A stretch of 54,582 bases of DNA, the filler included, from Sphacelaria rigidula (taxonomy: Eukaryota), in the NCBI GenBank assembly GCA_964200075.2. It is 3 parts of 3 records of this genome, joined end to end, with 100 filler letters (N's around TTAATTAATTAA, not from the genome) between each part and the next. Parts side by side here need not be neighbours in the genome. Positions count along the whole stretch, not along the records: positions 18,232 to 36,359 come from CAXNAA020000908.1; 2 more parts are not named here. One strand, written 5' to 3'. Shown here piece by piece: positions 14,640 to 42,700 of the stretch (its first letter is position 1; each line of letters begins with the position of its first letter). The translations under genes were made by a program, and so were the position numbers. Under the pieces are notes generated by a model. The model saw only the letters and a program-made list of their open reading frames with translations, had not been told where the DNA came from and ran no database searches.

Positions 14640-18131
<3,492 letters not shown>

Positions 18132-18231
18132 NNNNNNNNNNNNNNNNNNNNNNNNNNNNNNNNNNNNNNNNNNNNTTAATTAATTAANNNNNNNNNNNNN
18201 NNNNNNNNNNNNNNNNNNNNNNNNNNNNNNN
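18132..18231. other. Artificial assembly spacer (44N-TTAATTAATTAA-44N)
   Basis: Six-frame stop linker embedded in Ns, exactly 100 bp. Confidence 0.97.
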
Positions 18232-18289
18232 GCTTTGGGCTTGAGTCTCATCTCGAAGTTAAACCTCAATTCGCACAATTTGTTGTTCT

Positions 18290-20480: not shown

Positions 20481-21084
20481 ACTAGATGAACTCAACACTA
20501 AAAGTCGCGTCCCAGTTTTTGAGAGCTTTTGTGGAGGCCACGTATGTATGAGCGTAATGACATCCATATACACATGTAAGCTGGAGAAACAGTCTCAGGA
20601 ACGGAGCCCGCCAGTGACACACATGAGCGGACTCGAAACGTTCAAACCTGTGAAACTGGATCTTTAGCAAACCTAGGCAAACCGGGTCTACGGTACAGGA
20701 GCCCAAAAACAATGGGGTCACCGCATGAATCCTGGTGGAACGTAGCTGGTACTCCCGTACCACCTCGTTCACTCGTTCTTCTAGCCTACCCTTGACCACG
20801 GTCGCATCCTTGCCCAAATGACAAGAAGGAGAATTACGCCTCGCTCTGGAGATCCTTCGGCAGCAGGGTACGACAACGTTCCTCTTCGGGACCCGTAAGT
20901 CGACTGCCTCACCCCTAGCGAGGCTTAGTTCACAATGGCGTCAACGAAGTGATTTGAATCTACTCGTGCAGAGCAGAGCACTTTTACGTGCGGAGCACAC
21001 TGCCTTAGCACTTGCGACACCATCCGATACAAAAGGAACCGAGGAACGCTTCAGCAGGTGAAACGTATGGGTCATTTGTGCACA

Positions 21085-24000
21085 GTTATTCGAGTTGAGA
21101 GGGTTGTAGGAGCCAGCGAAACGCAAAATTAGCCTGTAGTGTGCATGATATGTCATCAGCAAGGCTAGTCAAAGAGCGAAACCGCACTCATTAACCCACC
21201 TCCCACCACCATAGTGCAGGAGGCACGGCTGTCAATCAAGCAGACCGACCCCTGGAAACACGGTAACTCGAAATCGCACTGACAAAATTCTACCCAACCT
21301 GCGAATGCACCACCTTGCCATAGCTGACATGTAGCAAGCGAAAGAAGGGTGTATTGGACGGTCGTGCCGACTCTCAGCTCGCAAGTTGAGAGGAATTGCA
21401 AACGGCAGATGGTTCATTTTTTCACGTCTCAGGGCGCATGCAATGGAAGATAAGTACCAACCTTCTGGTCCAATATGCATAAGAGAAGCGAGGTTTCTAG
21501 TCAGTACAGTAACTGCTCTGGTGAGACATCAAAACAACCCCAGTTGTGTGTGGAAGTATAGACTAGGATAAAGCATATGCTGAACAAGAGCAACAGGTCT
21601 GAAAAAAGGAGTGCGGTTGTAATATCACCAGCCTCCGTACTTGGAGTTAATTTCTGAGCAGCCTTTGTTACAGCCGTCGGAAAGCGTTACACCGGACACG
21701 GGTCCAAAACTGGGGAGACTCATCAAGGGCATACCGTGCGGCATTTTGTGCAGTACCCCAAGGGATCGGTAACGTTTCATTCCATGTCACACATGTGCAA
21801 CCTGCCACACAATTGTTTGTAAGCAGGGGCTGTTGATTGCTAATCGGAACTGCTCATACTCCCTCGAAAGATCATTCAGTCACATTCTAGTTAGATATAG
21901 CACCTGGATAAGTCTGCATCTTAAACTGGAACAATTACTGTCCAACACGGAGAAAGTGAGTTGTTTGTCATACAATAGCCTCTTCAGTGGGATCGTGTGC
22001 GAAGTCCCACAAAGAGATTGAGAAAGTACATGACACAATCAAGCAGAAGCTCAGAGTGAGAAACACAAGTCGAAAAATGGTGCAGAGTAACCAGCCTTCG
22101 TACTTGGAGAGTGTTCCACAAGCAGCTTTCATAGCTCAACCGTCATGTAGTTACAATGCAAAACACCGATCGAAATTTCTGACTCCCGACGCTCAGGCGT
22201 TCATGGCTTTTCACATGTCTTCGTTGGCACGGTACCCGAAAGGACCCGTCACGATGCATCCAGCCTAGGCTTCTACTTATTATGCTAGCACGGTTTTACT
22301 TAATAACGACCCCACATTATTTTGAAGATAAACGACTTCTTCAGAAACCGTGCTAGCATAATACGTAAAAGCCTAATCCAGCCTCAGAAAGAGTCCAAGT
22401 ACCAGCTAGAATAAATGATAGGGCGGTGGAAGCTCTGACCATAGTTTCAGCATCCGACTTACCTATCATTAGCTTGAAGTTTATCCGTTCGGCATCCTAC
22501 TTTGAATACGGCGGACATCAAACCTGTCCCAAGCGGATCTTTGGATCTAGAAGCGCGGACAACTCACCTATCTAAGTAGTGGGTTCCACTCGTTTCGACC
22601 TCACGTTAGGTAGAAAACCCTACCCGTCGAAGCATCGGTTTTACGAGATCTAGGCCCCGATCACATGCGGATTAATTATTCACTGATCAGAGCGTTTGGA
22701 GGCATTTCGGACTTGGAAGCTGAGACATAATCGCTCCGAAATTTTATGTTAGTATCAAAGCTACACACAAGAAACGGAACGAGCACAGCAAATCTGCACG
22801 CAAAGAGAAAGAACTGCGGCGCAATTTGTCCCAGTATATATCAGAAGAAATGTGTTGTTCCTCCGCAAACTGAGATGGCTCTTCATGTCGACTCGGATGA
22901 GCCTCCTGAAGTGACATTCACTGCGTTAATTTAACCGCGCGTAGTCACAGAACAGGGCGTTCAATCGTTAGAAATACCATCAGTTTCAAACGTCTGATCG
23001 TGGCACGCAATTTGTACATGGTCAACGGTGAATAAGACGGCTATGGTTCAGGTCGCCAATCCATCCAGCAGGCACGTTCGTATTGAGCGAAAACACTCTG
23101 TCAGGCAGGACACATCACTCTTGCATCAGACAGAGGTCTGAACAGTGAAAAGACAAACATAGGCAGTGCAGTCGCTGAAATCAAGTCGAAGGAACAGAGG
23201 GACCGAAGTCCTCAATCTGTGTACTTGATACCGGACAATCTTTTCGTGTTCACCGCAGGGGTCAGGATGCTGAGCAAGAAGTGAAGTCAAATGTCCACTC
23301 CAACCGGTTTTACAGCGAGTCGACAGACTACCCCACAGGGCCAACCCAAGGGTACAACAAGTCATCGACAAGCGTGTATGCGAAACGAAATCCTCAGCCG
23401 ATTGCTTGTAAATACGTCATCGCTGTGGTAGATAATGAGAAGCGCAATGGACTCTTTATCCCAAGTCTTGACAAAGCCGCACATTTTCCGCAGGAACAGA
23501 GGCCCAAGTCCTTGACCTGTATACGAAGTACCGGACAGTCTTTTCGCTCACAGCGCACGAGTTAGGGTGCTCCACGATAGGTGAAGCTGAGTTCCTACTC
23601 CAGCAAGGTACACAGCCGGTCGAAAGACAGCCTTACCGGGCCAACCCGCGAGTACAGGAAGTCATCGACAAGTGTGTACACGAAATGGAAAGATACGGTA
23701 TCATCGAGCAAAGGGCTAGCCGTTGGGGCGCGGCGGTAACAATAGTCGCTAAAAGCGATGGAACAGCTCGATTTTGCGTTGACTATCGATCTACACTCAA
23801 AAGTCTAGTGCGTAAGTCATGGCCAATGCCTCAAATGGAATTTCATATCGATACGGTAGCAGGGGCAAAATATATCTGTCTTCGATGTGCAGAAAAATCC
23901 ACCAAATCCCAATAGCGGAGAAAGAAAAGGAGAAGACAGCCTTCGTGACGAGCAAGGGCAAATGGGTTTTTAATCGTCTCCCATCCGAAGTAGCGTCGTC

Positions 24001-26640
24001 CCTATTTATTTTTTCACGAATAATGACTCTCACTTTCTCACACTTTGGACCGAAAAGCGGCCTCCTAGAATACATGGACGATTTAATCGCATGTTCTCCT
24101 TCATGGGAGAGCCACCTAACCCTACTTGAGGACATGTTCAAAGCACTGCAAGCAGCGGGCCTCACCCTAAAGCCATCAAAAGCACAGTTTGGACCAAAGG
24201 AAGTTAAAGACCTAGGGCACACTCTGTCAGCGGACGGTATCAGATTGAGTGACGGCCGTATTAAGGCCAACGCTTTAACTCTGCCCAAAAACATTATTCT
24301 GCAACCCTAAAACAATGTTACGCTGTTATTTTAGCGATCTAACACTGGAAGCATTTTTTGAGGGGCAAGCATTTCACTTGTGTAACAGATCATGCAGCGC
24401 TGCGGTACCTATATACAATGCAAGACACAAGCAACGTGCTGACCAGATGGGCTATTGCTTTGCAATCATATGACTTTACAGTGTAGCACAAACCGGGGAA
24501 ACTAAATATCGTACCCGACACTCTATCGCGACTATTTAAATTCGAGCGACAACAGGAAAACGAAGTCGAACCCCTACTCGCTCCGATATGTCGTAACGTG
24601 CCAGAAGATCTCGCATCACACACGGGAAAACAGCACCAGCCATTTCAATTCTCTGCCGATGATTTGGATAATCTGAAACCGGTACAAAGCGACAGAGAGC
24701 TGTTCACAGTAAAGGCAGTTTACAGCAGCGCAACGAATGTCTTCATGTCTGTGAACAAGCAAAAATTGCGAGCAGAACAGGCGAAAGCATATGGCCCCTA
24801 CATTCAATATTTGAATGACGACACCGCACCAATCCCGGAAAAGAGAAACGTTGGCAACCATGTCTTACTACTCAATCCAAGACGATATTTTGTACAGGTC
24901 TTATCAGCTAGGGCGTCTTCGGAAAAGAGGCACCTTTCGTGATCAACTAGTGGTACCCAAAGCCCTAATAAGGTGAACCTAAGGTTCGTACTACACTCGT
25001 ATCACGATTATGCATTATCCGGAGGCCACCTCAGTTTCAAACCGACTTACGAAAAGGTCAGAGCGAAGTATTGGTGGCCGTCAATAAGCAGAGACGTATG
25101 GCATTGGTGTAAAGAATGCCAGGCATGCCAACCTCGGAAAACAAGCCCGCAATCGTCCAAAACTCCCGACAGGCCATATACCTGTGGAAAGACCGTTTCA
25201 ATGTGTATCCATAGACTTGGTCGAGTATAAGACGATTTCCAGCTCTTCAGCTGGAGTGCCATGCAGGTATGTCATGTCGGTAATGGATCATTTGACACGC
25301 TACGCACTTTTTATCCCGATCCCAAACAAATCTGCCGTTACCGTAGCACGAATGCTCGTCGACAGAGTTTTATCAACATTCGGCATCCCGGAAAAGTTAC
25401 ACCCTGATGGAGGCAGGGAGTTTGATAACCAAGTGATCCACCAGCTACAGACTCTGTTGCAATTCGAGAAAACCCGCACGATTCCGTTCAGACCTCAAGG
25501 CAACTCGGTTTCAAAGCGGGTACACTCAACCCTACACGCGATGCTGGCAATGCACAGTTCAGTCAAGCAAGACCACTGGGCAACAATGTTGCCGTATGTT
25601 CAAATGGCATACAACACCTCATTCAACACAATGGTGCAAGAAACCCTATACCTCTTGTTGTTCGGACGGCAGCCAAGGTTGCCAGTTGATATAGTTCTAG
25701 GCATTCAACATGTAGGACACGCAGCAGATGTCGAAGAGTACACGAAACAACAGAGAGACAATTTACAGCTGGCCTTCGAACTCGCAAGACGCAATCTGCA
25801 AGAACGCGCAGACAAGCAGAAAGCAAGCAATCACAAACTCACGTCTTTTCCCACGTTCGAACCGGGACAAAAAGTATTACTATACAGACCGTACCAGGAT
25901 ACCGACTGCCCAAATCCAAAACTGCTGTCACCTTGGCGAGGTACGTACACTGTTTGATCCAAAGTTTCGCCACTAGTATACAAAGGAAGGTTGGGTTACG
26001 ACGCAATAGAAACGTCCGAACACTTGGCTCACTTGAAAGTATACTACGCACAGGAGAAAGCATCGGCCCCCGATTTTGATCGCCTTGCCGACTTTTTCCC
26101 GGGGAAAAAACGGCCTCTTCCAGAGGTAGACCGCCCAGATGTAGCACATCCAAAAATTGAATGCTAAACCGTTGACAGAATAGTGGGTCATAAACGAGAC
26201 CCAGGGCGATAAAAGCGACCTAAACTATGAATACCGCCTCAGACTCAAGGGTTACGGCCCATCAGCTGACCTAGAGTATCGAGCAGACGAGGTACCCCAA
26301 TGTCAACACCTCACAAACTGAATAGCGCGCATTCACCAGACCCGCCGTCTCGTAACACGAGAAAGCGAAAACGGGTTAGTGAAACGGTTCGAGCGGAAAC
26401 CAAATTTCCCATAAAGAACAATGGCCGGAAACGTGTACTTGCAGGGAAATTTCCCACCACATGCAGACGCGTTCGGTATAAAAACAAGAGGAAGGAGGAT
26501 TGATGCTATGGTCAGCGCGACCACAAGGACATCAGCGGTGAAGAGACTCGACCATAAGGTCTGAGCTCTTACCGGCAAAATAGGGGTATTGCTGGCGAGG
26601 ATGACCGTGGAAATTTTGCAATGTTGGAAGTACACCACTC
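21085..26640 (+). mobile_element. Degenerate Ty3/gypsy element B (RT-RH-INT-chromodomain)
   Basis: RT RFCVDYR, KTAFVT, YMDDLI (23685-24310), RNase H remnants, HHCC GGHL...YWWPS...CKECQAC (24973-25140), integrase core (25184-25957), chromodomain-like YEYRLRLKGYGPSADL (~26226-26275). Confidence 0.92.
22266..22375. mobile_element. hAT-type MITE (8-bp TSD ATCCAGCC)
   Basis: About 30-bp TIR TAGGCTT(C/T)TAC(T/G)TATTATGCTAGCACGGTTT. TSD at 22258-22265 and 22376-22383. Confidence 0.9.
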
Positions 26641-26690
26641 CAGACATTAACAGCCGATTTTATATTTTGGGGTTCATACAAAATACATGG

Positions 26691-26943
26691 CATGATATAT
26701 AAATAAATTTAATTAATTAATTAATTAATTGGATGGATGGATGGATGGATGGTTGGTCATCTGGGGATGGTTGGTCATTTGATTTATTTTTTTGAGCAAG
26801 GGAAAGACAATAAAGTACCATGATATATAAATAAATTTAATTAATTAATTAATTAATTAATTGGATGGATGGATGGATGGATGGTTGGTCATTTGGGGAT
26901 GGTTGGTCATTTGATTTATTTTTTTGAGCAAGGGAAAGACAAT
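26691..26943 (+). repeat. Tandem duplication of about 128 bp with (TAAT)n and (GGAT)n
   Basis: Copies start at 26691 and 26819. Confidence 0.9.
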
Positions 26944-26971
26944 ATGGATCAGGAATTTTTAAAACGTCTAA

Positions 26972-27374
26972 CCCTTAGACCTGGAGTTACTATTTCTGGA
27001 TCATCCACACTTTTTTTTACTCGAAATTGATGCCGATTCAACAGAAGACTAACCTCGCGGTCTTCTAAGGTATAACCCGTGGAATGCGAAGTTTTTCATC
27101 TGTTGAATCGTCATCAATATGATGACGTGAAAAAAAGTATTGATGATCCAGAAAGAGTAATATCGCGGTACTATTGGATGAAAGATTGTAACCCCAGTGC
27201 TGCATTTTGAGTAAGAGATTCGGCATTAGTTCGATATATCACTGAAAGTGAAGCCGTTTTACAAACACATAAATCAGTAGTGACGCCGATTATTGTACCT
27301 GTGAATCGACATAACTTTGACATGATAAAAAACATAAATTATGCCGATTCACAATAACAAAAATCAGCACAGGG
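26972..27374. repeat. Cluster of imperfect palindromes built on the ATGCCGATTCA motif, related to the piggyBac-like MITE at 50122
   Basis: Inverted arms 26987-27050/27090-27160. The 27341-27370 segment is the near-exact reverse complement of 50148-50177. Confidence 0.65.
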
Positions 27375-27498
27375 CACCGAAATACTCGTCAGATAGCGCG
27401 GACAGGATAGCGGCCTGCGCAAGTGTTCCGACAGAAAGAATATGAAAATATCAGCGATCGTACAGAACAGGAGCAGACATATATATATATATATATAG

Positions 27499-27735
27499 TC
27501 CACCCCAGTGATATTCGTTAACGCCCACGATGGAGTGGCCTGTGTACTTGACGGAGGGGTTTCCCAGGGTTTTCCCATCGAGGAGGAAGTGAAGGCACGA
27601 CGTCATAGGCACATCCCACAAGGAGTGGACGTGGTCGCATACGTCTGAAATCTGGTTGCTGCCAGGGAGCAACGCAGAGGACGCGAAGGGGATCGCATCC
27701 GAACACAAGCTATCAACATGAACCGTCCGCGTAAA
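27499..27735 (-). pseudogene. Ubiquitin-like domain fragment ending in Gly-Gly
   Basis: TVHVDSL...SNQISDVCDHVHSLWDVP..CLHFLLDGKTL...SIVGVNEYHWGG follows the ubiquitin pattern (IFVKTL..DTIENVKAKIQDKEGIP..RLIFAGKQL...STLHLVLRLRGG). Aligned by eye. In-frame TGA upstream and no stop immediately after GG. Confidence 0.35.
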
Positions 27736-29567
27736 ACCCGAAACGACTTCCTTGCGTCAGCACCTCAAGCTGGCAGTACTCAGGAAGACGGAAGTATGAC
27801 CCCGTGGACCCTAGCAGGAGGTACCTATACTCCTGTACCACGATAACCCCTCAGGAGGTATCACCGCGCTCTCAAGCGAGCAATGTAAAAAAGTAGAAAC
27901 ATTCATATATATATATATAGTGATCGCTTAAGTACGAGTACGGGAAAAAAAAGTAACGCAAGTTACGTAGCAGCAAGGAGGAAAATAAAATAAAAGGAGG
28001 AACAACAAAGACAGAATAGACCTCCTTCAAAAGCCCGGATGAAGCGCCTAGAAAAACGGCATGGAGTAGTTCGCCGACGAGAAAACCAAGAATGAGTAAT
28101 TATTGTATTTCCCCTTATGAAAAAATATAGCCATCCAACCATTCCTCCTCAAACAACCATCCGACCATCCATCCTCACAAAAAAAATCACAGAAAAGAAT
28201 GACGAAATACTATACAACAACGAAACCCATCATACGAAATGTATTAGAAATAAAAATTCTATAAAAATAGAGTTCTACAGAGGTGAAGAGGACCCGGCGG
28301 ACTAGTACAGGTGAAAAGTAGGAAGCCGTTGTAATGTATGAAAACGAAACAAAAGAAAAACGCAGACATGAAATAAATGCGCGAACAAAAAACCAGGAGG
28401 AGTAATCCGCCGACCAAAGCAGACACATAAGACAAAAACGTAAAACGGAAATACAACAAGAGAAGAAGAGTAGGGAAAAGGAAATAGGAAGCCGAAAAGG
28501 AACAGGTAGTAAAAAGCGTGCTGCGCATGCAGGTACCGCACAGTACCCCATGGAGGAAAATGACGGTGAGGTAGGTGAGATATCGCCGTCCATAAAAACA
28601 GGAATGACCAACATTGAAAGAAGACAAACACGAACACCGAAAATACAACTTTAAAAGTTGAGTAGGGAAAAGGAAATAAAAAGCCGACAAACGTACAGTG
28701 ACTTGAAATATAATATCATACGCTCTATGAAAAAATGTGGATTCGCAGTAAAAGGAAAAGGGGGTAGGAGGTCGTTGCAATGTAAGAAAACGAAAAAAAA
28801 AAACGCAGGCAGGAACAAAAAGCGCGTAAGAAAACGGGAAGACGTCGTCCGTCGTACACAAAAGCAGGAAACATTAACTCTCACATAACACAAACATGTA
28901 CACCGAAAAAACAAGAAGATAAGTTAAGTAGGGAAAAGGACATGGGAATGGTTGAAAGTATGAGTGACTACAAATAGAAAACCATACGCTCCTGTAAAAA
29001 TAGGTATACCTAGAAACGGAATAAATATACCAAAATAATAAATGGAGAAACGCAAGAAGAAAAACCTGACGTAGAAAAAAAATAAAAAGAAACAGCACTG
29101 ACAAGAAACAGCAAATGTTGAAGACGAAACGAAGGAGAAAAGCGAAGAAAAAAATAGAGAAAATAACTCCCTAAAACGTATGAAAATACAAGTATAACGT
29201 GAAAATCTTAAAAAGGCACAGAAGCAACGATGAAAAAACTAGAAGACCAGACTGTTACAATAGAAGAGAAAATAACTGAGAAAACGCAAGAAGAAACACT
29301 ACAGAAGAAAAAACGCGAGACAGAACCAAAGCAAGAGACACAATACTAAAAATACAATCGAAAGAAATAGAAGAAAAAAATCTGGAAGATAGAAAAATAA
29401 ACGGCAAGGGTGAATGTAGAAAATTGGAATTGGTATACTAATGTAAGAAAAGATACGACACAAAGCACGAGAAAATGAGAAAAAAGCGACAAGCGTAGGA
29501 AATAAAAGAAGTAGAAAATAAAGGGCAGAAAGAAATACCTACAAACGAAAAAATAAAAAATCGAAAA

Positions 29568-31698
29568 CTACGAAGGATGACGACGCTTCCCTCGAGAGGC
29601 GCCACTGCAAAGAGAACACGTACGGGGGGAATCAGGATCAGATCCTGATTGACCACAAGTTCTATGCAACACTCCTTCGCAAGATCCGCTGCAAGGCACC
29701 ATAGCAATGGAAGGCGGTAGAACACAGCCGGGCTCAGTGCAAGGCGAGTGAATCAGAAGCGGTAAGATGTCGGTGCCGTCGTCGGAGGTTCCAGGTCCAG
29801 TGCGGAAGGTCGGTGTAAGAGGAGAATGACGATGGTCAGGAATGGTGAGGTCGGCGGATACGGAGTCGGAGTTGGAGTCGATGGAGAGAGCGGGAGCTAG
29901 AGCAGACGGACGCACGAGGCGGTTAGAATTGTCGTCGGAATCGCTGTCGGGCCCCACAGGAAAGTTGGGTACACCCGGTAAACGAGAGTCGGCTATGGCG
30001 GCCGACGCACGGCGACGATTACGCAATACGCGAACGGCGTCAACGGCATCGACGACCTCGGCGCGGCGACTAGCGTGAACCTTAGCCTGGTCAGCCGTCA
30101 ATTCAACCCATTCGGCATCCTGATGATCCCAGAGTGCAAAACTGTCGCTGACGCGACCACCGACGCCGCCGGAGAAAAATAAGGAGTACGCGTGCTCCCG
30201 ACGGAAAAGAGTAGGACACACAAGTGCTACGAAATACGCCTCAGATCGCAGAGCTTCCATGGGGTGACCTCCGGTGGGGCATATCCACGACGAGCTAGGA
30301 AGGTATTCCCCATCCTGAACCATCCAAGTAACGATCGCGACGGGCGACGGCGTGAGAGGACGAAGAAACTCCTCCCTAAAACGTCGAAGACAGCTCCAGA
30401 AGTTTTTTTTTCCGAGTTCAAGCCGAATTTCCTTGACGGCTTGACGCTGTAGTTTACGGTATTCCGCCAAAGTAACGTTGACCTCGGTTTTGCTGACCCC
30501 CTTGAGTTTTGTTCTGAAGTGGCTCTTCCCAACATCCTCGGAACAGTAGCCGACCATCGCTGGAAGGAGAGAGTAAAGTGCGAGAAAGAGAGAAAAGGGA
30601 AATAATTAATAGTTAATATGAAAAGTAGATAATAAAGTAGAAGGTGAAAGTAGAGGTAGAGCAGGCGAGGAGAAAAAAAGCAGAACTATACAGAGAAGAA
30701 AAATAAGGAAAGAAGGGATAGACAGATGAGAAAAAATAGGTGAGTTGCAGATAACAGCTTTACATAGCGAAACACAAAGAAAATAACAATGGGAGGAAGA
30801 TAACAAACGAGGAGAAGAATGGAATAATGGCGAAAGCTTAACAAACAAGAAGAAAGGTGCTGGGAAGAGGGCAAAAAGAAGAGTGAGGATAGAAGGGAAG
30901 GTGAATAAGAAAAAAAAAACGCGATATCTTGTAAAAATAAAGAGAAAAAAATAAACGTAAGACGTGACAGAAAGTAGGGGAAAAAAAACTTGCCTTCGAA
31001 ACTTTGTTTGTTCCCCAGGGGCTTCACGTCGATTTTGAGGCGAAGATCTGGAGTCCATTCTTCGAAGCTCTTGATGGCGCTCCGAATGTCGGCATTAAGC
31101 TTTCGATCGTTGTCGTATGCCTTGACGATGCCCAACGTCAAGATTCCCTGGATGTGTAAGTTGCCTTTTTTTGCTCCTTGCTCCAGGCTGACGACGCCTC
31201 GTACCGTCCTCTTCTCGAGGAAGTGGGCAGCATCGTCGAAAACATTGGAAGGAATGTTCGCGGCGTCCCGAAATTTAACGGTTAATGAGAAATCGACGGG
31301 GTTGCCCGCCCCGCAGTCGATGATCGAATCGACGATGCCACCGGTGACATCGCAAATTCGTTCAGTAGAACGTAGAGGCGGCCGACCGCGACGCCCAGGC
31401 TGGTCGCTTGTAGCGGACGTGGAAGGAGGTGGCGCTTCAACCATAAATGGCTGGAGAGGTTGAGTAGGAGAGGTGTCCGCCGAGAGGGAGTCATCCGCCG
31501 CAGACAAAGCGGTGCGACGACGACGCGTCCTCCTCGTGCGCGTCGGCCCATCGGACGAAGATGGACGGACAACGCCGTTTGCAGTGGAAATTTGAGTGTC
31601 CACCACGGGCGCAGCATCTGCGGCACGGGTGAAACGCGCGTCATCGTTGTGGGGGGTCGACGACGCCGTCGTTTCTGTCGGAGGCAACGGAAGGGATG
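29568..31698 (-). CDS. Replitron-type HUH endonuclease/transposase with C-terminal PHD finger; exons 31698-30994 and 30559-29568 (5' exon(s) unresolved)
   Basis: Motif I DFSLTV, motif II SLEQGAKKGNLHIQG. Splicing a 434-nt GC-AG intron (AAG|GCAAGT ... CTCTCCTTCCAG|) gives in-frame QSFEAMVGYCSEDVGKSHF (motif III Tyr), then WMVQDGEYLPSSSWI.P..G.PM and Cx4Cx10Cx3Cx4Hx2Cx12Cx2C. No stop in either exon. Confidence 0.85.
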
Positions 31699-32582
31699 CT
31701 GTAGGGGGAACAAGGAAATAGGACGTAGGAAGGAGAAAGAAATGAAATAGTTAAGTACTGGAAGCGAAAAGAGCGTGAAAGCAAGAGAGGACGAGGAGAA
31801 AAGTCATCGAGAAGGAGAAACGAAGGAAACGCATGTAGAAATGAAAGAACTGATAAGACACATAGAACAAACAGGAGATAAGTAACTCGGGAAAAGAGGT
31901 ATGGTACGAGTTACGAATAAACAAAATAATGAGAGGACAGCTCTAGCTATCAACTGGAATCTTTGTGAACATCTATGTATTTTTGATGGACATAATATCC
32001 GCGCCAGGTGCAACAATGACCGCAAGGATACAGTACTTCGCATCAAAAGAATTGCGTCTCTTACAAATCGTTACGCGCAATGTAGAGAATGAGGAATCGT
32101 TACGATGGCGAGAAACATAAAAAATAATAGGGAGAAAGGAGCAGCGGTTCAGAAGCTGCCATTGGGTTAACCTCCGAAATGCCCTGTTCGGGCAAGGAAT
32201 AGGATGTTACAGAAGAAAGAAACGTACACAAAGGATGCGAAGCTCTCCAAAGATAAAACAGTGGAATATCGCGAATGGGGTTGAAAAGTAATCCACAACA
32301 TAGCGTAAAGAACGGAGCGAACCGTAGACGTACAGGTACCTGCAGAGAAATGCGACACGCACTATAACGTATGTTCCGAGGAGGTCCACGACCGCAATCG
32401 AAAATGCTACGAGTAAGTGGAAGAGAGTGAAGGTACGGTTGGGGAGCATTTTTTTTTTATGAGAATAGGATTGTTAGGAGCACTGTAAAATTCGATACAC
32501 CACTCACGAGATACGTGATAGTACACGAGGGATACGTAATCAATGTGCCAGAGATATCCCGAACGAATTTGCAGACGATAAT

Positions 32583-34660
32583 GCTATTACCCATAATATA
32601 GCGTGATGTACAATCGTTAGGAGCCCCTGAATACAAGAAGAATTAGTGCAAAAAGTGCAACCCTATCGTTGCATGGCACAGGAGACGAATGTAGACGGAA
32701 GCATTTGAGATACCGTAAGGAGTAAGAGAAGGACGATTGTAAGGAAAGGAGATAAATGAACCAATTAAAAAAATACAGAGAGGAGAATACTTACAAATGG
32801 TGGGAGAAGGAACGACTGTCAGAGGCGTCGGTTACTGGAAGAACTCCGAAGGAGGAACGCAGGACCAGCACGCTTCGCATCAACGCAGGAGCCTGAACTA
32901 CGCGGGATGTGTTGGATGAGTCGTCGTCGTTGTCGGAGTCCGATGTGAGAATATCCACAACGCCGTTGGGCGTGGTACCGTAAAAGGTCTGGCAAGAGGC
33001 GATCGCAAGACGCTGCTCCTGCGTGGACTTTGTCACAGGTACCTTATTCGCTGCAGAAAAATCCACGAGAAAGAGCGGAGGGGGGCGCAAACGGAGAGAT
33101 GAGGGCAAAGATAATGGTGAGAAAATTAGAAGAGGAATAACGGTAGAAATGCAAAAGGTGTATTTACGAAGCCACAGCGCTACCCAGAAAAAAAGAGGAG
33201 TAGGGGAAGTGAAGGCTTCTATCCACCATAAGTATCGAAGATTAATAGCGGCGAGAGCTACATGTTCACAAAAGAGAGAAAAAAATTGTATCGTGGTACA
33301 AAAAATTGTGCGAACGTGGTTGAGTTACAGCGAAAGACGAAGAAAGACATGACTAAAATAGACAGACAGTAGTACGTATAATACATACCGCAAAAAATAT
33401 ACTGAGTAGTGGAACGAACAGATAACCCTAAATAAAGTACCGATAGACGGGGGCCATAAGTTCGAGTAAGAGTAGAAAGAATATATGTCAAAATGCAATG
33501 TAATTTTAAAGCCGGACGCCCCGGTTGCTCTGTTGGTAACCCCGAACGCTCAGACGGTTGAGTATTGGGGTTAAATTCCCGGAGCCATGTGGGATATTTA
33601 TTATTGCAATCGATAATGCTATGACTCACTATATAGCGCAATCAACAATCGTTAGGTGCCCCTGAATATAAGCAGACTCCGTGCAAAAAGTGCAACCGTA
33701 CCGAAGCATCGCACAAGAGACGAGTGCAGACGGAAGCATTTGAGAAACCGTAGAGAAACAAACAAAATGGACGTATGTAACGAAAGGAGATGAATGAAAC
33801 ATGAACAAAAAAAATAGAGAAGACAACACTTACGTATCTTGGGAGGAGGCAGGACTCTCCGAGGCGTGAGTTACTGAGTGGTCTTCGAGGCAGGAAGGCA
33901 CGGAGTCGTGGTCGAGCACGCGCCGCCTCTTCGCAGGAGCCTGAACTACGCGGGATGTGAAGGCAGAGTCGTTGTCGTTGTCGGAGTCGTCGTCCGATGT
34001 GAGAATTTCCACAACGCCTTTCGGCTTAGTACCGTATAAAGCCTCGCAAGAGGCGATCGCAAGACGTTGCTCCTGCGTGGACTTTGTCACAAGAGCCTTA
34101 TTTATTGCAGAAAAATCCACGAGAAAGAGCAGAGGGAGGCGTAAACGGATAGATGAGGGCTAACATAATGGTGATAAATGAGAAAAAGACTACCGGTAGA
34201 AAAGCAAAAGGTGTATTTACGAAGCCACAGCGCTACCCAGAAAAAAAGAGGAGTAGGGAAAGCGAAAAGCGAAGGCATGCATCCACCATAAGAATCGAAG
34301 ATTAATAGCGGAGAGATCCGCGCTGAAATATCGAAAAACACACAGGAAAAAAACGTGAATGATGAGAAGACCGAGAAGAGGTTGAATGGTCCTATTATAG
34401 TAACACTGTGGACAGGGAGGCGGCTGTATGTTCACAAAACAGATGACAAAAATTGTATCACGGTACAAAATTTTGTGCGAACGTGGTTGAGTAACGGCGA
34501 AAGACGAAGAAAGACATGACTGAATTAGACTGAGAGTAGTACGTATAATACATACCGCAAAGCACATACTGTGTAGCGGAACTGTGAAAAAACTGCGAAT
34601 AAAGTACCGATAGACGGGGGCCACAATTTGGAGTAAGTGCTGAAAGAAAAGATGTCAAAA
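32583..34660 (-). repeat. Diverged tandem duplication of about 0.9-1.0 kb, each copy with an exon-like segment (32795-33050; ~33834-34105)
   Basis: Paralogous peptides VTKSTQEQRLAIASC...VV(D/E)ILTSD...SRVVQAPA. Both end at GTAAGT donors. The acceptor is intact only in the 33050 copy. Confidence 0.85.
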
Positions 34661-34989
34661 CACAAGGTAATATGAGCCAGTCGCACTGGTGGTTCAGTTA
34701 GCAATCTGGGCTATTTTCGACACCCTGTTCAACACTGAAGAGCGACTATGTCGTTGTATACAATAAACTATTGGACTATTGAAAATAAAGCGATCGGAAG
34801 GTAAAGCACTGCTGCAGTAGAGTGAAAAAAAAAGCACAAATTATAGATGGGGAAGGCGGGGGAAAAGAGTAAAGTATACTGACGTTAGCACGATGTCTGT
34901 GGTTGGAAGTAAAAATTGTGATCAGTGGCGCCAAATTGAAATCAAAATTCTAGATGAAAAAGGTGAAAAGACGGCAGCACAATATTGCC

Positions 34990-35310
34990 ACAGTCCCGGT
35001 GGCTCAGGTGGGAAACTCGTAACCCTCTTGCACTTGAGCTGTGGGGTTCAATTCTCGGAGAGACGCAGAATTTTCACACCATGCCCAACAGTGGAGAGCG
35101 ACCATGTCGCGGGTACAAAAATTCGAGTTAACGGTCTATAAGGGAAAGGGACTGCTGACCTCCTCTCGCGAAAAATATAGAAAAGGCAAGCACTGCAGAA
35201 GGAAGGTGGAGGACTAAAAACCAATAATAAAGATTAAGCTCCTGAAGAATGTAACTTCCTCCTGTGTGACCCCACCTGGTGCGTCCACATATACCGAAAG
35301 GTGGAAATTG
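34990..35310 (+). mobile_element. tRNA-derived SINE-like repeat
   Basis: A-box TGGCTCAGGTGG and B-box GGTTCAATTC, followed by a body that recurs inverted at 36895-37135. Confidence 0.6.
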
Positions 35311-35407
35311 GGGCACAGAAAAAACGGAACAAGAATTCACTACAGCAGTAAAGTTACGTCCTAGAAAGCGAAGTGGGAAGAGGGGGGCAAGGCTCTTCTT
35401 CACTCAC

Positions 35408-35726
35408 CCCAGCAGGAAATCGGTGCTTCGATCTGATGTATTTCTTCAGATCCTCCGCGACGTCGCGAGCGTTCTCGTTGTCGGAAGCTAGGAAGCTAAG
35501 AGCACCCATGAGGAACGTTCGATGACTCCGGCCACGCCTTCAGGAAGATATATGTTACCTTGAGATTTAAGGTCGTCCTTGATGTTGTAACCGTTCGCGA
35601 CTCCGACACAAGACGTTTACTCGGGAACGGTGATGGTGATGTGATGGGACGACATATAAATTTGTGGAGATCTTTTGAGGAAGCGCCGGGAAATAAAATG
35701 GATGGCGCGGCGGGGCGAGGCATAAC
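35408..35726 (-). pseudogene. Exon-like pseudogene fragment of a small unknown protein
   Basis: Bounded by CAG| and |GTGAGT. Reads VGVANGYNIKDDLKSQGNIYLPEG...SWVLLASDNENARDVAEDLKKYI once an 8-bp duplication (35483-35498) is removed. One upstream TAA. Confidence 0.4.
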
Positions 35727-36359
35727 CTGCGGGTTTTACAGAGCCGGTGCGTCTCGCAGATTACGTCAGTTTGACGATGGAATTAGCCCAAAAGAAATAA
35801 AACCCAACGTATGAAGAGAAAATTATAAAAGAGACGTGGAGATCAAAAGTTAAGCGGTTGACTTTACGGCCATTTGACGATGAAATTAGCCGAAGTGAAA
35901 AAAATGACGTACATAATCTGATAAAATTATAGCCGACAAATTAGCCGAAGTAAAAAAAGGGTGCACATAGTATGCCAAAATTATAGCCGAGGAGGTCAAT
36001 GTTGAAGTGGTTGAGATGTGCACTAGGCGAGGCGATATAGAGGCGGATCTTATTGATCAGTATTTATGTGGAAATGGGTGGAAAAGTTCTAAAATGGAAC
36101 GAGTAGAGGGTGACGACCTAAGACGAACGTTCGGCGTCTGATGCGCAACGCATGTTCAGTGCAGTACATGTGCAGTAGGCGAGGCGACGTAGAGGTGGAC
36201 CTTGTGGGCATGGGTTTATGTTATATACATTGGCGATGATGTATGTATTGAAGAGTAGTAATAGTAAATTAAATGTAGGCAATCGGCAGATGCCGAAGTC
36301 ACAAAATGGAATACATTGTACTCATGATCATGCCTGCCGTAGTCATCAGACCATTGACC

Positions 36360-36459
36360 NNNNNNNNNNNNNNNNNNNNNNNNNNNNNNNNNNNNNNNNN
36401 NNNTTAATTAATTAANNNNNNNNNNNNNNNNNNNNNNNNNNNNNNNNNNNNNNNNNNNN
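36360..36459. other. Artificial assembly spacer (44N-TTAATTAATTAA-44N)
   Basis: Same 100-bp linker as 18132-18231. Confidence 0.97.
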
Positions 36460-36786: not shown

Positions 36787-39700
36787 GTCAGTCGCGGGGC
36801 GATGCCTGGAAACTCGGGATCTTTTGAGGATACCGAGGGGGAGTTTATTTGCCCCGTGTATTGTTGCCCTGTCATCTCATCTTTTTCGAGCGCTGTCCCC
36901 ATTTTTCGGTATATGTGAGCGCATCAGCCAGGATCACATAGGAGGAAGGTCAACACGGGAGCTTTTTGGTTCCTTCTTTTTGCAAGTAGCACTCCACCTT
37001 CCCTCTGCGGTGCTTGCCTTTCACTGTATCGCGGGGAGGTTTCAGCCTTCCCTAATTGTCGTCGACCGTGACGTCGAATTTTGTGTACCCACGACGTGAC
37101 TGCTTCCTCATTGTTGAGCATGATGCAAAAAAAAACTCAATATCTCATGGCTTCACCGACACTCAAACCAACGTCCCAACCGTATCTTCCGAGGTTCCAA
37201 ATGGAGTCTCCGTGGCGACCGGCGTGGCCTTAGATGAACGACTGCAGGATGACATGTTGTCTATAGCCTATACCGCACAACTCTCAGTCAGCAAATATTA
37301 TAGCGTGTCCTCTCGCGAGCAGACGGGTGAGGCAGGGGTGTGGGTGAACACCTTATTCGATTTATGGCGGCATGCTCTGGTGTTTGACCAGTTCAGACCC
37401 CTGGGCGACTGGCTGTAACAAATCTACCTTATAGGGGAGGTACCGTGTCGTTGGGCGGTGCTGCAGGTGTGCTGACCTCTGTAGGTGTTGTGTTGTGTGT
37501 CACACCGGGAGACGTGTGATGGGTTGGCCTGCGAGGATGATGGAGTCGTCATGATGAGTCTCGTACACGGCGCTGGTTGTTGTCGGGCTGGATGGCCACT
37601 GTGCCGAGCGGTCGGTCGTATGTCGTCTCGCGTGCTCATGTTGCTGCGTTCCCCGTGTTTCCCAATAAATTCCCAACGAATTCCTAGCATGTGTTTGTAT
37701 TGCTGGCTTCTTTCTTCGTCTCTTCAATGTTTTGCCAGTAAATATTATGGATGTATGTCCTGTGGCCCCGCATGGTGTGTGTAATGGGTGCGTGCTGTTG
37801 TGGTGTGGTCCGATTCGATTCTGTCTACTCCCGCTGTCGCTGCTGCGTCTTGTTTCTCATTTTCTTGTCATGGTCGGCAGGCCAAATGCGGAGTCGAGCT
37901 ACGGGCTGCAAAATGTGGGCAAGATGATGCGGCTGATGCAGGGCTGCAAGAATGTAGGGGCCATCGCTTCGCAAGTGCGAGTGCTGCAGCGGAGCAGAAA
38001 TGCCTTGACGTTGATGCAGAGCTTTGACTGCAGTACCACATACGTGGGAGTGTTCGGGGGTTCCTCGCTGTGCGGACGAAGTATCGCGTGCTTCGGGATG
38101 GCGGTGATGTATCGATACAGGTGAGCTTCCCGGAACATCGAGTGCGCGCATATATATATGTATGCGCACATGCGTCGGTTTGTGCTCGCCCTCCACGAGT
38201 CCTTGCCTTGCGTGGGCGATGCAGCAGTGGTTCATGGTATCACCAAGTACACCATCCTATAGGACCCCACTGCATGTTTCGGTGGTCGATGCTTGGTGCT
38301 TGGTGCGTCGTGAGTGATTATCCTTGTGTCCGTCGCCATGCATGCGTGCTTATTTCAGCTACGTGGGGAGTATATACTCTGTGAAGGTCTCTGCATTGAA
38401 TCTGGAAAGTACACGATAAGAGGGTATGGAATCGTCAGACTCATACCCATGGGGTGTGGTAAAAATATTCATGTGAAGGTGTATTCATGGCGGTAATATG
38501 TTTTTCGTACCGACCAGTTCTGCTTGGGTATGTCAAAGTCGATATAATAGTCGCTGTCTCTCATTGTGCTGCACGTGAAATGCCCGTCCTGTTTTTTTTT
38601 TCCATTGTTTTCTGATTTGTTTCTTGTCGGCTGTGGTACATGCGTATGTATCCTCAGCGCTCTGTTGGAGAGCAAGGTTGAGGGGGTTCCTGCCCCGCTG
38701 GAGGCGTTCTCGCGAACGCCGGGCAAGCACCTGGTAGATCTCGTGAACTTGGATATGAACGAGGACCAGGGGATGACCACGTTCGTCATGCGGGTGAGCC
38801 GAGCGTTACAGGTCGCTGCGCACAGCTGTGTTTCGTTCCGCAGTTCGGGGAACTTCGTTTCGGGTGTATGATCTGCTCGCTGTGGCGTGGACATGGCACA
38901 CGAGTGAGGCGGATAGCAGAAAGTGGCTGGACGCTAACATTGAACTGTACTGTGTTTCCCGCGCGCTTTGGAGGGAATGTGGAATGCAGGCTACACACGA
39001 ATGTGCTCTTTGCTGAGCGTGCCAGTTCCTGATGATGCCTACATTTCAATGCGCCGTTGTGATTCAAATGAGATGTGTACCGTCGGGTTGTGAATGTTGT
39101 CTTCATATCTGGCAGGCTGGGTACGACACAAAAGTTTGTGTGGTGACTCGCTTCTATACCTACGCGCCCGAGACGCTAGCGGAGCTCATGGGACAGAGGC
39201 GACGATGGCAGGTGCGTGCGTCATATCCCAGCGTGTGCTATACTGTGGCGTGTATATTTGCATGTGTTTTTCAAAACAACTGTAGGTCGTTGGCCCCCTA
39301 AGGAACGGAGCGGGCTTTCCCGGTGTGGATTCTATCTGATTTCCCTTGCGTCGAGATCTACACCTCACTCCACCTGCGAAGAAACAATGGGAATGAAACC
39401 CGCGTTCAGTCCCGATAGCATGAGTGGCCAGTAGATATATGTACATGTGTATTGGAAACACGTGAGGGGCCTTCCAGAGTATTTTCGTAGAAGAGCATTA
39501 GCATCGCTTGCTACGACGTATGGGTACTGCGTAACCTAAGCGTCCACCCGTCCCAACCCCGACCTCCCCCGTCCGCGTTTGCCAGGCTGGGTACTTCGTG
39601 GGAATGCCTTCCCAGATCTTCGGTTGGCCGTCGCCGCACCTTCAGGTCAAGAAGTCGCGATGGCTCATGGCGGCGGTCGTGATGACCATGTGGGTCAATG

Positions 39701-42700
39701 CGTTCTTGTTGCCGGGAACGGTCGGCGTGGGGTTGGCACTCATCTTTGGGCAGGTGCGTGCACGGCAGTCAAGGGTTTTCCTGTTCATACCTCCTCTTCA
39801 TCCCTTGTGCCTGCGTTTCCGGGTTTCTGTTTTTTGTATTGTTTGAAACATCATGTCTTTTTGTGCATTTTTTTTTTTTTTTTTTTTTTCGTTTTTCTTT
39901 TTCCCTTTTCCTCCCCCCCTCTTCTCTTTCTCTTTTTTTTTTTTTTTTTTTCTNNNNNNNNNNTGTTTTTGTTTTTTTTTTTTTTTTGGCTGCCCCTACC
40001 CCCCCCCCCCCCCCCCCCCCCCTCTTATCGTCTCTTTCTCTGGACCAGAACCTGGTGTCGAGACATGAGCCCCATCTCCCCGTCGGTATATGCTTTTAAT
40101 TTTGAATTTGGTATTTCCGCGCAAATTGGATCTTGACTGATAATCCCGCCGGCCTTCACTGGGTCCGCTGTCGTCAACCACGTTTCCTCAGCAAGTCATG
40201 TTACGTTCTCAACGACTGAAGACAACATTAGTCGGGAGACATGAATCAAACCAAATTTTACGAAATATTTTGGATGTGATTTCAAATCCCGGAATATTTC
40301 GGGGGTAGGTCGTTCCATATGGACCGACCACGTGGGCGCGGGGCGGCTATTAATCGGAACTGAAAATTCCATGTCTGTACCCGCAAACTTGTTATCCGAA
40401 ATTTCATGTCCTTCTTGCCCGCACACTTGCTATTCGAAATTTCATGTCCGATCCTCTTTTTCTTGTTCTGGCGTGCGGACAGGCGTACGTCCGATTCGGG
40501 TGCACGGGCCCGTGTGGGGTTGGGGGCAGCCTCCCAGTTCTGCTGTCGGAATCCCTGTTCGCGGCTGGTGTCTGGGCATTTTGGATTATTTTCATAGTAA
40601 TGACGATGGACAAAGCCCCTAAGGAGGTAAGCGGGGGGGGGGGCTAGTATTTATGGATGCAGCGCTGCCAGTTTTGTTCATCTGAGTGATCCGTCTTTTC
40701 TCATTTCATTTATTGCTCCCAAGGAGGCCAGGCGGTGGTGGTATCACTCTTAGCATGAGTGGGTGTTCGGCTACTTTTTTTTATTGTTCGTTTTTGTGAT
40801 GCGTTTTTTTTTTTCTATGGGTCTGACAACGTTGCTGCACCAGCTAAAGCTTTCAAGGCTGTAGTAGTCAAGCCCCTTGTGGCGGGAACGGGAACTCCTT
40901 GCTCCCTCATTTTCAATGATTTGTTTTTTTGACTCTTTCCTACTTTTTTCCTGGGTGTCGGCCCCTTGTCATCGTGTCATGAAATAAGCGCAGTTGAAGG
41001 GCCCAAACGCCGAGAGGCCATCGTTTGCCAACCCTTCATGCGGCGAAGATTCGGTATCCCTGTCGTTTTGTTTCCTGACAATGCTCACGCCGTCTCGTCT
41101 TCTACCGTGCGTTTTTAAAATATCTGCTTCTCAATTTTGTGAAAACGCCCAACCTGTTCGCGAGTCTTGCGACGGGAGAGCTGCGCAACTTGTTTCCCAG
41201 ATTTGGATACCTGTTGAGAGCCCGTCATGGCACCCCAAACACGACCTATGAAGTGTGTGGGAGTGCCCCACGGTTGGTGTTGCGATTGGCGGGATATTTC
41301 GGAGAGTTACCCTACATGACACAACCTTGGAATTGTCGCAACGGAAATGTCCTGATTCGTTTCCTGGTGTAGATCTTGAATTTTGGAGCCCCTCGACGAG
41401 AAACATCTGGGGCCAATAATGTCTAAACCCCTACCGCGGCATTACGTGGACGACCTTTCTCCCCCTCTTCCTTCCCTGAGCAATGCCACGGTAGAGATCC
41501 ACGTTTTGCACAAAATCTTGTCTGGTTCAGGGGCTCCTAACGATTCTTGACGTCGAAGAATATGGGTCAGGGCATCCGCGCTTGCGAAAATCATTCGGAA
41601 CATCCGTAGCACATTGTAATAGTAATTCATCCTGGCGTACTCACATATTTCATAAGCCGTGTTTTGGATGAGATGAAGGGCTCCTAATAAGTCCAACCTC
41701 GGAAAAAATATTCCTGCACTCCTACCGTAGCATCACTCTCTCGTGTGTTGCTTCCCCTCGAATCTTTCAATCGGTCATGTGTTTGCGATACAGGTGCGAC
41801 ATCTCTGTCGATTGTTCTTCTTGGCGATGAGCGTCCTGTCGGTGGTGTTGTGCGTAGCTACGGCGTTTGTGTCTGCGGGCGTCCAGGTTTTCCTGATTCT
41901 GTTGGTGGGGCTTAATCTTATCGTCGGGCTTGCGCTCACATACGATTGGCGGGAGTGGCCGCACCGGCTGCAGGAGATCATTCTTTACGTGATCTTTTTA
42001 TGTGAGCTACATACATTTAATGTATAGTTGATGTATAGTTAACTGAACTGTTATTTGGTGGTGGTGGGATATAGTCCGTATGTTGTGTATTGTTTACCCT
42101 AATTTTATTCTTATTTTACTCAATAGCGTAATGTCTCGCCGGTGCATACACAAATCAGTACATTTGCGTCCTGTTTCTCCATACTTTACCCAAGTCAAAA
42201 ATCAACATTCTCGGAACAGTATTTTACACTAGACGCTCGGACTGGAGAGGGAGAAAACTTTCACACGTGTCCGATTATCATTTTTGTTTCTGATCGGACT
42301 GGTGAAAATGATGGTACCACCCATGGGCGTGATATTTTCTTGTTTCATTTATTTCGCTCTCAGTCGGTACCATACATGGCCTCGTGACGACTCCGTACTC
42401 GTAGGTCAAGGGAGTCGGTCCCCTCTCTCCTCCCCCCATTACCGGTTACATGGGGTATCGGCTTATCAAGCGCTGGAAGTGAACATGATGTCGATTCAAC
42501 AGACGAGGTACACATCCCACGGGTGGCGTTCATGGTTGGCTTTTCATATTGCTGGTAGGACTCTTCGATTAAATAGTGCAACAGGCGACTTACGTTTGAC
42601 TGTGCAGGCACATCGCTGTGACTTCATAGCGCTGCGGTGCGGTTCGCTGCGTACATCAACACTGCAGCTTTACACATTCTCGTCTCAGGTAGTAGGGAGG

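Follow-up and report, generated by a model that had tools for sequence, protein, structure and literature searches.

Results

An interrupted transposase gene on the minus strand

We analysed a stretch of 54,582 nucleotides (54.6 kb; the window) from the genome of the brown alga Sphacelaria rigidula (assembly GCA_964200075.2), made of three parts joined by 100-N fillers. The part from CAXNAA020000908.1 (positions 18,232 to 36,359) carries what appears to be the gene for a transposase of the Replitron group. Two stop-free minus-strand frames, 30686-31750 (354 codons) and 29568-30605 (345 codons), rank second and fourth in length among the stop-free frames of the whole window. An initial annotation, made from the sequence alone, had joined them across a 434-nt intron into one stop-free frame with rolling-circle motifs. 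We reproduced both the frames and the join, and every motif that had been quoted (FSLTV, E...GNLHIQG, the motif III block and GEYLPSSSWI) was found at its place. The gene has the following features.

30994-31750, minus strand: stop-free frame of exon 1, joined at the donor (frame analysis)
30994-31698, minus strand: main exon 1, with an N-terminal region that is disordered and rich in Ser, Thr and Arg, and ~100 initial residues of the HUH domain of Rep (replication initiator protein)
31277-31291, minus strand: Rep motif I, FSLTV, corresponding to the family signature SUTU (PMC10288648)
31148-31189, minus strand: SLEQG...GNLHIQG block (Glu plus motif II)
within 31175-31189, minus strand: conserved Glu of SLEQG, the proposed third metal ligand
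31148-31156, minus strand: motif II, HIQ (HUQ variant of HUH)
30560-30993, minus strand: intron of 434 nt, phase-1, GC-AG, CT-rich, splitting the HUH domain between motifs II and III
29568-30559, minus strand: main exon 2, covering motif III and the remainder of the HUH domain, then Replitron domain 2, a conserved extension and a linker rich in acidic residues and Ser, then a C4HC3 finger, a basic tail and a TAG stop
30537-30551, minus strand: motif III with the single catalytic Tyr, reading GYCSE against GYxxK in the family
30174-30380, minus strand: Replitron domain 2 (Pfam Replitron_C match), a putative oligomerization domain that holds GEYLPSSSWI
30282-30311, minus strand: GEYLPSSSWI block
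29607-29741, minus strand: C-terminal Cys4-His-Cys3 zinc-finger-like module with PHD/FYVE-like spacing (conservation of the ligand columns)
29571-29591, minus strand: basic GKRR tail
29568-29570, minus strand: stop codon TAG

The 5′ limit of exon 1, an acceptor AG at 31700-31699, is a guess from the sequence. The length of 565 residues given initially rests on this assumed acceptor (31699/31698) and does not stand as a whole number of codons: (705 + 989)/3 = 564.7, and therefore one base must derive from an upstream exon. There is no in-frame ATG from 31750 to 31445, and the first, at 31444-31442, would give a protein of 480 residues with all the conserved domains. Homology to the N-termini of three related proteins, P0005, P0117 and P0099, reaches upstream of this ATG. 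An upstream coding exon is possible, and the acceptor at 31700-31699 is a plausible one.

The encoded protein matches Replitron profiles

Both exons were scanned against Pfam at E ≤ 10. Replitron_HUH (PF21859) matched residues 154-251 of exon 1 (profile positions 2-92 of 128; E 1.1e-8, 35.9 bits) and residues 1-34 of exon 2 (positions 95-128; E 2.3e-8, 34.9 bits), each time above its curated cut-off of 28.5 bits. The two profile positions left unmatched between these segments correspond to the last residue of exon 1 and the Ala of the split codon. The profile coordinates are thus contiguous across the exons, and therefore the intron cuts the domain exactly at the point proposed at the outset. 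Replitron_C (PF21860; curated cut-off 27 bits) matched residues 60-128 of exon 2 (positions 9-77 of 77; E 1.2e-5, 26.0 bits), and 11 of 12 aligned rows matched the same family at E ≤ 1. Apart from these two families, only Znf_SCAND3 came up, a zinc finger with a weak match (E 0.094). The scan found no family of Helitrons, viral Reps or geminivirus Reps, and none of PIF1 or superfamily 3 (SF3) helicases.

The search for a helicase was also negative at the level of patterns and frames. A Walker A pattern matched none of 160 fetched relatives, and the six frames of 26000-36300 held no helicase-like open reading frame (ORF), the lone Walker-like match being in a 73-codon frame at the edge of that region. 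The assignment to Replitrons and the absence of a helicase, both put forward in the initial annotation, are in this way supported: comparison with Replitron, Helitron and CRESS (single-stranded, circular, Rep-encoding) DNA virus models returned Replitron_HUH, Replitron_C and the weak finger alone, with Replitron_HUH above cut-off on both exons.

The junction lies at an apparently conserved position

On the coding strand, exon 1 and the intron meet as CAA AGT TTC GAA G/GCAAGT at 30994/30993, so that the donor is GC and not GT; the intron ends in CCAG, and its 3′ side reads CTCCTTCCAG/CG ATG GTC GGC TAC at 30560/30559. Joining 30994 to 30559 makes a split codon, G/CG, for Ala, and gives KQSFE-A-MVGYC. 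We combined all GT or GC donors in 30900-31060 with all AG acceptors in 30500-30640, which yielded 18 stop-free joins, and scored them with a hidden Markov model (HMM) of 72 relatives from which the window's own rows were excluded. The 30994/30559 join was the best of the 18 (271.2 bits). Moreover, P0161, an annotated S. rigidula protein of 615 residues, has KQSFE-A-KVGYCSKD at this place, the bridge of one residue included. In its alignment (71% identity over exon 2, 45% over exon 1), exon 1 ends at residue 312 of P0161 and exon 2 starts at residue 315. The junction proposed initially is thus both the top of the 18 alternatives and the one used by an independent gene model.

Other relatives appear to bear traces of the same intron. 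Nine of 150 listed representatives begin exactly at the junction (query residue 94 aligned with residue 1 of the protein), and P0117 and P0099 continue past KQSF into a CT-rich, intron-like translation. To judge from these sequences, the position of the intron looks conserved within the lineage. Exon 2 and the 30994/30559 junction have no cover in the contigs of run X8, which is RNA by guess; this neither supports nor contradicts the join.

A relative of the protein is predicted to have the fold of Rep nucleases

The structure prediction was run on P0008, a relative that in tblastn is 45% identical to exon 2 and 41% identical to exon 1. The alignment used for it comprised 74 rows, chosen for long coverage from ~160 proteins, and the model had a mean predicted local distance difference test (pLDDT) score of 85.1. 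VIA-align against 48,161 chains gave 17 matches at Z ≥ 5, of which rows 1-13 were all Rep nuclease or viral origin-binding domains (Z 5.4-7.9). The top match was the Rep of duck circovirus (7kii_A; Z 7.9, root-mean-square deviation 2.4, 87 residues aligned), followed among others by the Rep of porcine circovirus 2 (PCV2; 8h56_A and 2hw0, Z 7.5 and 7.3), nanovirus M-Rep (6h8o_A, Z 6.5) and RepB of pMV158 (3dkx_A, Z 6.0; 8amu_A, Z 5.8). In Foldseek, the weak rows included Rep68 of adeno-associated virus (AAV), RepB of pMV158 and the Reps of Vientovirus and wheat dwarf virus.

Because the VIA-align list is consistent and the Pfam match agrees with it, we read the two jointly as an HUH endonuclease fold, which in solved Reps is a five-stranded sheet with helices at its flanks. 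The structural check called for initially therefore came out in favor of a Rep nuclease, with circovirus, nanovirus and pMV158 domains as the best matches of this relative. PCV2 Rep was likewise the best HHpred hit reported when the group was defined (Craig 2023; PMC10288648).

Relatives, copies and host

A word-indexed search with exon 2 returned 10 proteins at E ≤ 1e-3 from 3962 candidates, 36-80% identical to the query. Searched exhaustively with phmmer, P0008 had 272 representatives at E ≤ 1e-3 among 1.84 billion; 75 of them passed E ≤ 1e-10 and 13 passed E ≤ 1e-30. The four relatives that carry a species name all come from brown algae (S. rigidula with two proteins, Ectocarpus sp. 13 and Nemacystus decipiens with one each), which agrees with the 'stramenopile-like' genome recognized from the sequence at first. 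The S. rigidula pair shares 88% identity and is encoded on separate contigs; therefore the family has more than one copy in this species. Pattern searches confirmed no relative in Joint Genome Institute (JGI) metagenome contigs (120 pattern matches, none confirmed) or in IMG/VR (two matches, none confirmed), and found no match in GenBank phage records.

At least two versions of the gene, and a difference at a near-invariant Lys

The catalytic columns hardly vary among the non-gap residues of the 74-row alignment: Glu in 64 of 67, His in 66 of 67 and Gln in 65 of 66, and, in motif III, Gly in 69 of 71, Tyr in 70 of 71 and Lys in 70 of 71. The sole residue other than Lys in the last of these columns is the Glu of the window, encoded by GAG at 30539-30537.

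We placed Logan contigs of four public runs (X1, X3, X4 and X8) on 26000-36300. The runs that contain the stretch bear a coded organism label and 'algae metagenome', and none of those listed is recorded as RNA. In X1, X3 and X4 the sole contig over position 30539 has T on the plus strand, which gives AAG (Lys) on the coding strand; the X1 contig spanning 29973-30632 differs from the window at 11 of 660 bases. Directly behind motif I, the run contigs encode Ser-Ser in place of Lys-Phe in the window, and Ser-Ser is likewise found in P0117 and P0099. Both variants are present at 31259-31276 in X3 and X4 (variant depth 48.9 of 73.3 and 18.8 of 30.3, respectively), and therefore at least two versions, ~98% identical, exist in public reads of the same organism label. 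Contigs lose rare variants, and for this reason nothing follows from the lack of a Glu version at 30539 in these runs. In X8, a 151-nt contig of depth 2 on exon 1 (31128-31278) carries the letters of the window.

The motif III Lys probably has a role in catalysis. Because of the change from Lys to Glu, together with the lack of an in-frame ATG upstream of residue 103, the copy in the window may be impaired in catalysis, as judged from its sequence. The Lys/Glu difference between the assembly and the public reads forms a natural pair for probing the function of this residue.

A C-terminal module resembling PHD and FYVE fingers

Close relatives share the pattern C-x4-C-x10-C-x2-3-C-x4-H-x2-C-x12-22-C-x2-C, after which comes a basic tail; across 12 aligned rows its Cys and His columns show little or no variation. 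Written as a regular expression, the pattern matched 16 of the 160 fetched proteins, all of them close relatives, and none of the distant full-length Replitron-like representatives. Znf_SCAND3 was found in 4 of the 12 rows (best E 0.00081). A profile of the 12 rows had 12 hits at E ≤ 10 among Protein Data Bank (PDB) sequences, the best being 1v5n_A (E 0.0034) and the others mostly PHD-finger proteins (E 0.11-4.3). AlphaFold2 applied to the last 76 residues of the window's protein gave a confident structure in one of five models (pLDDT 78.1 against 47.8-50.7). Foldseek rows for the finger model were mostly PHD fingers, all weak (E ≥ 0.45), and within the model of P0008 the finger had RIM/FYVE-type matches at Z 3.6-4.9. 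Weak yet one-directional, these profile and model matches suggest a PHD/FYVE-like finger. No paper combining 'replitron' and 'PHD finger' was found in the literature searched, and in Craig 2023 'zinc' occurs once, in the legend to Fig. 1 (PMC10288648).

Candidate 5′ exons

Upstream of exon 1 and on the same strand we recognized two further exons.

33834-33946, minus strand: upstream exon A, its 3′ end set by a donor GTAAGT at 33833; a diverged duplicate of exon B
32795-33050, minus strand: upstream exon B, with acceptor CAG, donor GTAAGT and an open frame; joined to exon A in a contig of X8

This X8 contig, 216 nt long and without differences from the window, links 33834 to 33050, and the 783 nt that it skips run from GTAAGT to CAG on the minus strand. 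It is best read, from its sequence, as spliced RNA of the same strand as the transposase gene, and it supports the guess that X8 is RNA. With its canonical donor, the frame of exon B is shifted by one base relative to exon 1; a join in frame would need a donor shifted one base off the GT, and we do not claim it. In the joined A-B form, the frame that is homologous between the two exons meets a stop just past the junction. The peptides of exons A and B matched no Pfam family and had no relatives; for exon B, none was found among the 160 fetched proteins or among longer database proteins. A and B are candidates for 5′ exons of the mRNA that encodes the transposase.

The two exons lie in a tandem duplication, 32569-33534 and 33604-34699, with a unit of ~1.05-1.17 kb and 80-86% identity; each unit contains an exon whose open frame has VV(D/E)ILTSD and an acidic/Ser run. 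Between exon B and exon 1, a segment of ~270 nt (32422-32682) is 68% identical, in inverted orientation, to 41475-41741, 9 kb away; the pair is probably a dispersed repeat, judging by this similarity.

Interpretation and alternative explanations

We conclude, with a probability of roughly 0.85, that this S. rigidula locus represents a copy of a Replitron, one of the eukaryotic HUH transposons that lack a helicase, belonging to a brown-alga lineage. The sequence comparisons support membership at the level of the transposase protein. The kind itself is already known. Because Craig 2023 records Replitrons in brown algae and Pfam models exist for them, the locus is a further brown-alga member and not a new kind.

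Several observations weigh against this conclusion or its parts. Replitron_C scored 1 bit below its Pfam cut-off. The fold was examined on P0008 and not on the spliced protein of the window, Foldseek with the whole P0008 model found no PDB match at E ≤ 1e-3, and VIA-align Z scores below 8 can, by the tool's own note, reflect a common arrangement. There is no second copy of the transposase within the 54.6-kb window, the run contigs placed on 26000-36300 revealed no ends of an element, and the depth of the runs over the locus is about that of unique flanks, meaning low copy. The Lys-to-Glu change and the missing start argue against activity of this copy. Lastly, the donor is of the rare GC class, with an in-frame GT donor 9 nt upstream.

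Among the alternatives, the one that fares best, and which we still think unlikely, is domestication of a Replitron transposase into a host gene of low copy number and many exons, with upstream spliced exons of its own and an added chromatin-type finger, for which catalysis is dispensable. Such a gene would account for a depth like that of unique flanks, for spliced upstream exons on the same strand, for a C4HC3 finger conserved across the clade and for Glu at the motif III Lys. The differences between versions also lean this way: in the 40 variant rows (of 539) that were counted, five synonymous changes and one double change from Ser to Ser compare with six nucleotide sites at which amino acids are replaced, five replacements in all. 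However, the catalytic His, Gln, Tyr and Lys are kept almost without exception in relatives, and the Lys version occurs in reads of the same organism. Moreover, the many divergent lineages (36-80% identity) among brown-alga-like sequences and the two copies that are 88% identical in one species form a pattern that fits transposon families. The upstream exons are out of frame with exon 1 and lack relatives, and the locus sits within a repeat-rich region.

A second alternative concerns the structure of the gene. The canonical GT donor, with exon 1 ending at 31003 and joined to 30559, would drop the residues S-F-E; we regard this join as improbable. GT donors are far commoner than GC donors, and this join is in frame, stop-free and the runner-up of the 18 (258.3 bits). 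It nonetheless scores 12.9 bits below the GC junction, and the residues that it loses match positions 90-92 of the Pfam profile. Relatives, among them P0007, P0008, P0042 and P0068, retain three residues between Q-(S/T) and M. GAAG/GCAAGT also matches the strong consensus typical of GC donors.

That the locus is instead a Rep fragment of an integrated CRESS-DNA virus or plasmid, i.e., an endogenous viral element, is very improbable: the nearest solved folds are indeed circovirus and nanovirus Reps, and the HUQ variant is shared with circoviruses (PMC10288648), but the Pfam scan at E ≤ 10 returned neither a viral Rep nor an SF3 helicase family, no Walker A motif was found, the Replitron-specific domain 2 and a conserved spliceosomal intron are present, and no relative came from IMG/VR contigs or GenBank phage records.

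Proposed mechanism

Taking the locus as a Replitron copy, its transposase begins with a disordered N-terminus, followed by a Rep nuclease of the Y1 type (SLTV as motif I, the metal-ligand Glu, HUQ and a single catalytic Tyr), Replitron domain 2, a clade-specific conserved extension, the C4HC3 finger and, last, a basic tail. It may multimerize, by analogy with Replitron-1 and with the CRESS and pMV158 Reps. By the same analogy it would nick one strand at an end of the element through the Tyr and stay bound as a 5′-phosphotyrosine, and the element could then be copied and pasted with the help of host replication or a host helicase. The sequence, the membership of the domains and a homology-supported junction are shown, and we infer activity, multimerization and finger function.

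Chromodomains bias integration for some retrotransposon integrases. It is conceivable, if on balance doubtful, that the brown-alga Replitron lineage gained the C4HC3 finger and a conserved helical extension, that the finger tethers the transposase to chromatin or DNA and so biases integration, that the phase-1 GC-AG intron in the HUH domain was kept through diversification, and that the copy in the window is a naturally disabled allele beside the Lys one.

Comparison with known systems

To our knowledge, Replitrons are one of only two eukaryotic transposon groups with an HUH nuclease, and we know of few copies that have been examined in genomic context. The group was defined by Craig 2023 (PNAS; PMC10288648), who records it in brown algae. 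Like the stramenopile and brown-alga transposases described there, the protein of the window has a Y1 Rep domain (SUTU, Glu, HUQ and one Tyr) followed by domain 2, no helicase, disordered termini and an intron-containing gene. It differs from the published Replitrons in having GYxxE instead of GYxxK, and the extra conserved stretch of its clade after domain 2 and the C4HC3 finger go unmentioned in the main text of that paper (PMC10288648). Replitron-1 of Chlamydomonas reinhardtii, the founding active member, has the same two conserved domains and also an intron-containing gene; it too is of low copy in its genome, with three ancestral copies, and has TAAAGG terminal direct repeats, an RG target and a fuzzy right end (PMC10288648). 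Distant members of the family are only ~20-30% identical to the brown-alga query P0008.

The CRESS-DNA virus Reps (PCV2, duck circovirus and nanovirus M-Rep) are the best structural matches and share the Y1 and HUQ chemistry. They differ in having an SF3 helicase and small circular genomes, and no Pfam match to them was found at the sequence level. RepB of pMV158 likewise combines a Y1 Rep nuclease, without a helicase, and a helical oligomerization domain behind it; it is, however, a bacterial plasmid initiator without detectable sequence similarity, and the oligomerization role of Replitron domain 2 is putative. The Helitron RepHel also belongs to a eukaryotic copy-and-paste HUH transposon, but its Y2 Rep and PIF1-like helicase are both absent from the locus.

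The locus is a clean brown-alga case, with a homology-backed exon structure and a conserved intron inside the catalytic domain. What it adds is modest (a conserved intron of the GC-AG class within the HUH domain, a finger specific to the clade and the difference between Lys and Glu); knowledge of the group as a whole is unchanged, and its value lies in annotation and follow-up, not in discovery.

Surroundings of the locus

On either side of the locus lie repeats of very high copy number (26344-27375 and 34944-35631), with depths of 1e4-3.5e5 against ~50-300 over the locus. The second of them (core ~34985-35075) reaches 1e4-3.5e5 in three DNA-type runs, as compared with ~100 nearby, and contains A-box-like and B-box-like strings resembling those of tRNA (TGGCTCAGGTGG ... 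GGTTCAATTCTC), which suggest that it may be a tRNA-derived short interspersed nuclear element (SINE). ARAGORN found no tRNA gene in the window, this repeat included, and no Rfam family was found in the window. A piece related to this repeat apparently lies between the tandem units, near 33530-33600.

At 26987-27160 there is a palindromic element of ~175 bp, with arms at 26987-27058 and 27086-27160 that are 85-88% complementary and a run depth of ~1e5. It resembles a miniature inverted-repeat transposable element (MITE) or another hairpin-forming element, and many contigs end or diverge at 27063. We considered whether a joint from 27063 to 35127, which skips 8063, marks the empty site of an 8-kb insertion, and rejected this. 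Because its shorter side has 18-21 letters, its depth is 742-2004 in the three DNA-type runs and it falls in very high-copy repeats (this palindrome and the repeat at 34944-35631), we read it as the joining of repeat families and not as the ends of the element.

Downstream of the gene, 28318-29001 consists of degenerate direct repeats with units of ~190-445 nt that are 61-85% identical; Tandem Repeats Finder reported nothing in 27300-35200, these repeats included. Retroelement pieces were matched by Pfam elsewhere in the window, which is rich in repeats.

15537-16115, minus strand: RVT_2
17045-17995, minus strand: gag_pre-integrase, sub-threshold
25088-25954, plus strand: rve
53124-53906, minus strand: RT_RNaseH

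RVT_2 and gag_pre-integrase belong to Copia-like pieces (15537-18175), and rve and RT_RNaseH to Gypsy-like ones. All of these Pfam-matched frames are shorter than 380 codons, which fits the decay of the surrounding retroelements noted in the initial annotation. A long Thr-coding (ACN)n run near 17900-18175 adjoins an N gap. The 100-N gap at 36360-36459 is flanked by TTAA repeats and by inverted repeat copies (35071-35304 and 36899-37131), and (TTAA)n and (GGAT)n microsatellites in 26691-26944 are duplicated 132 nt apart.

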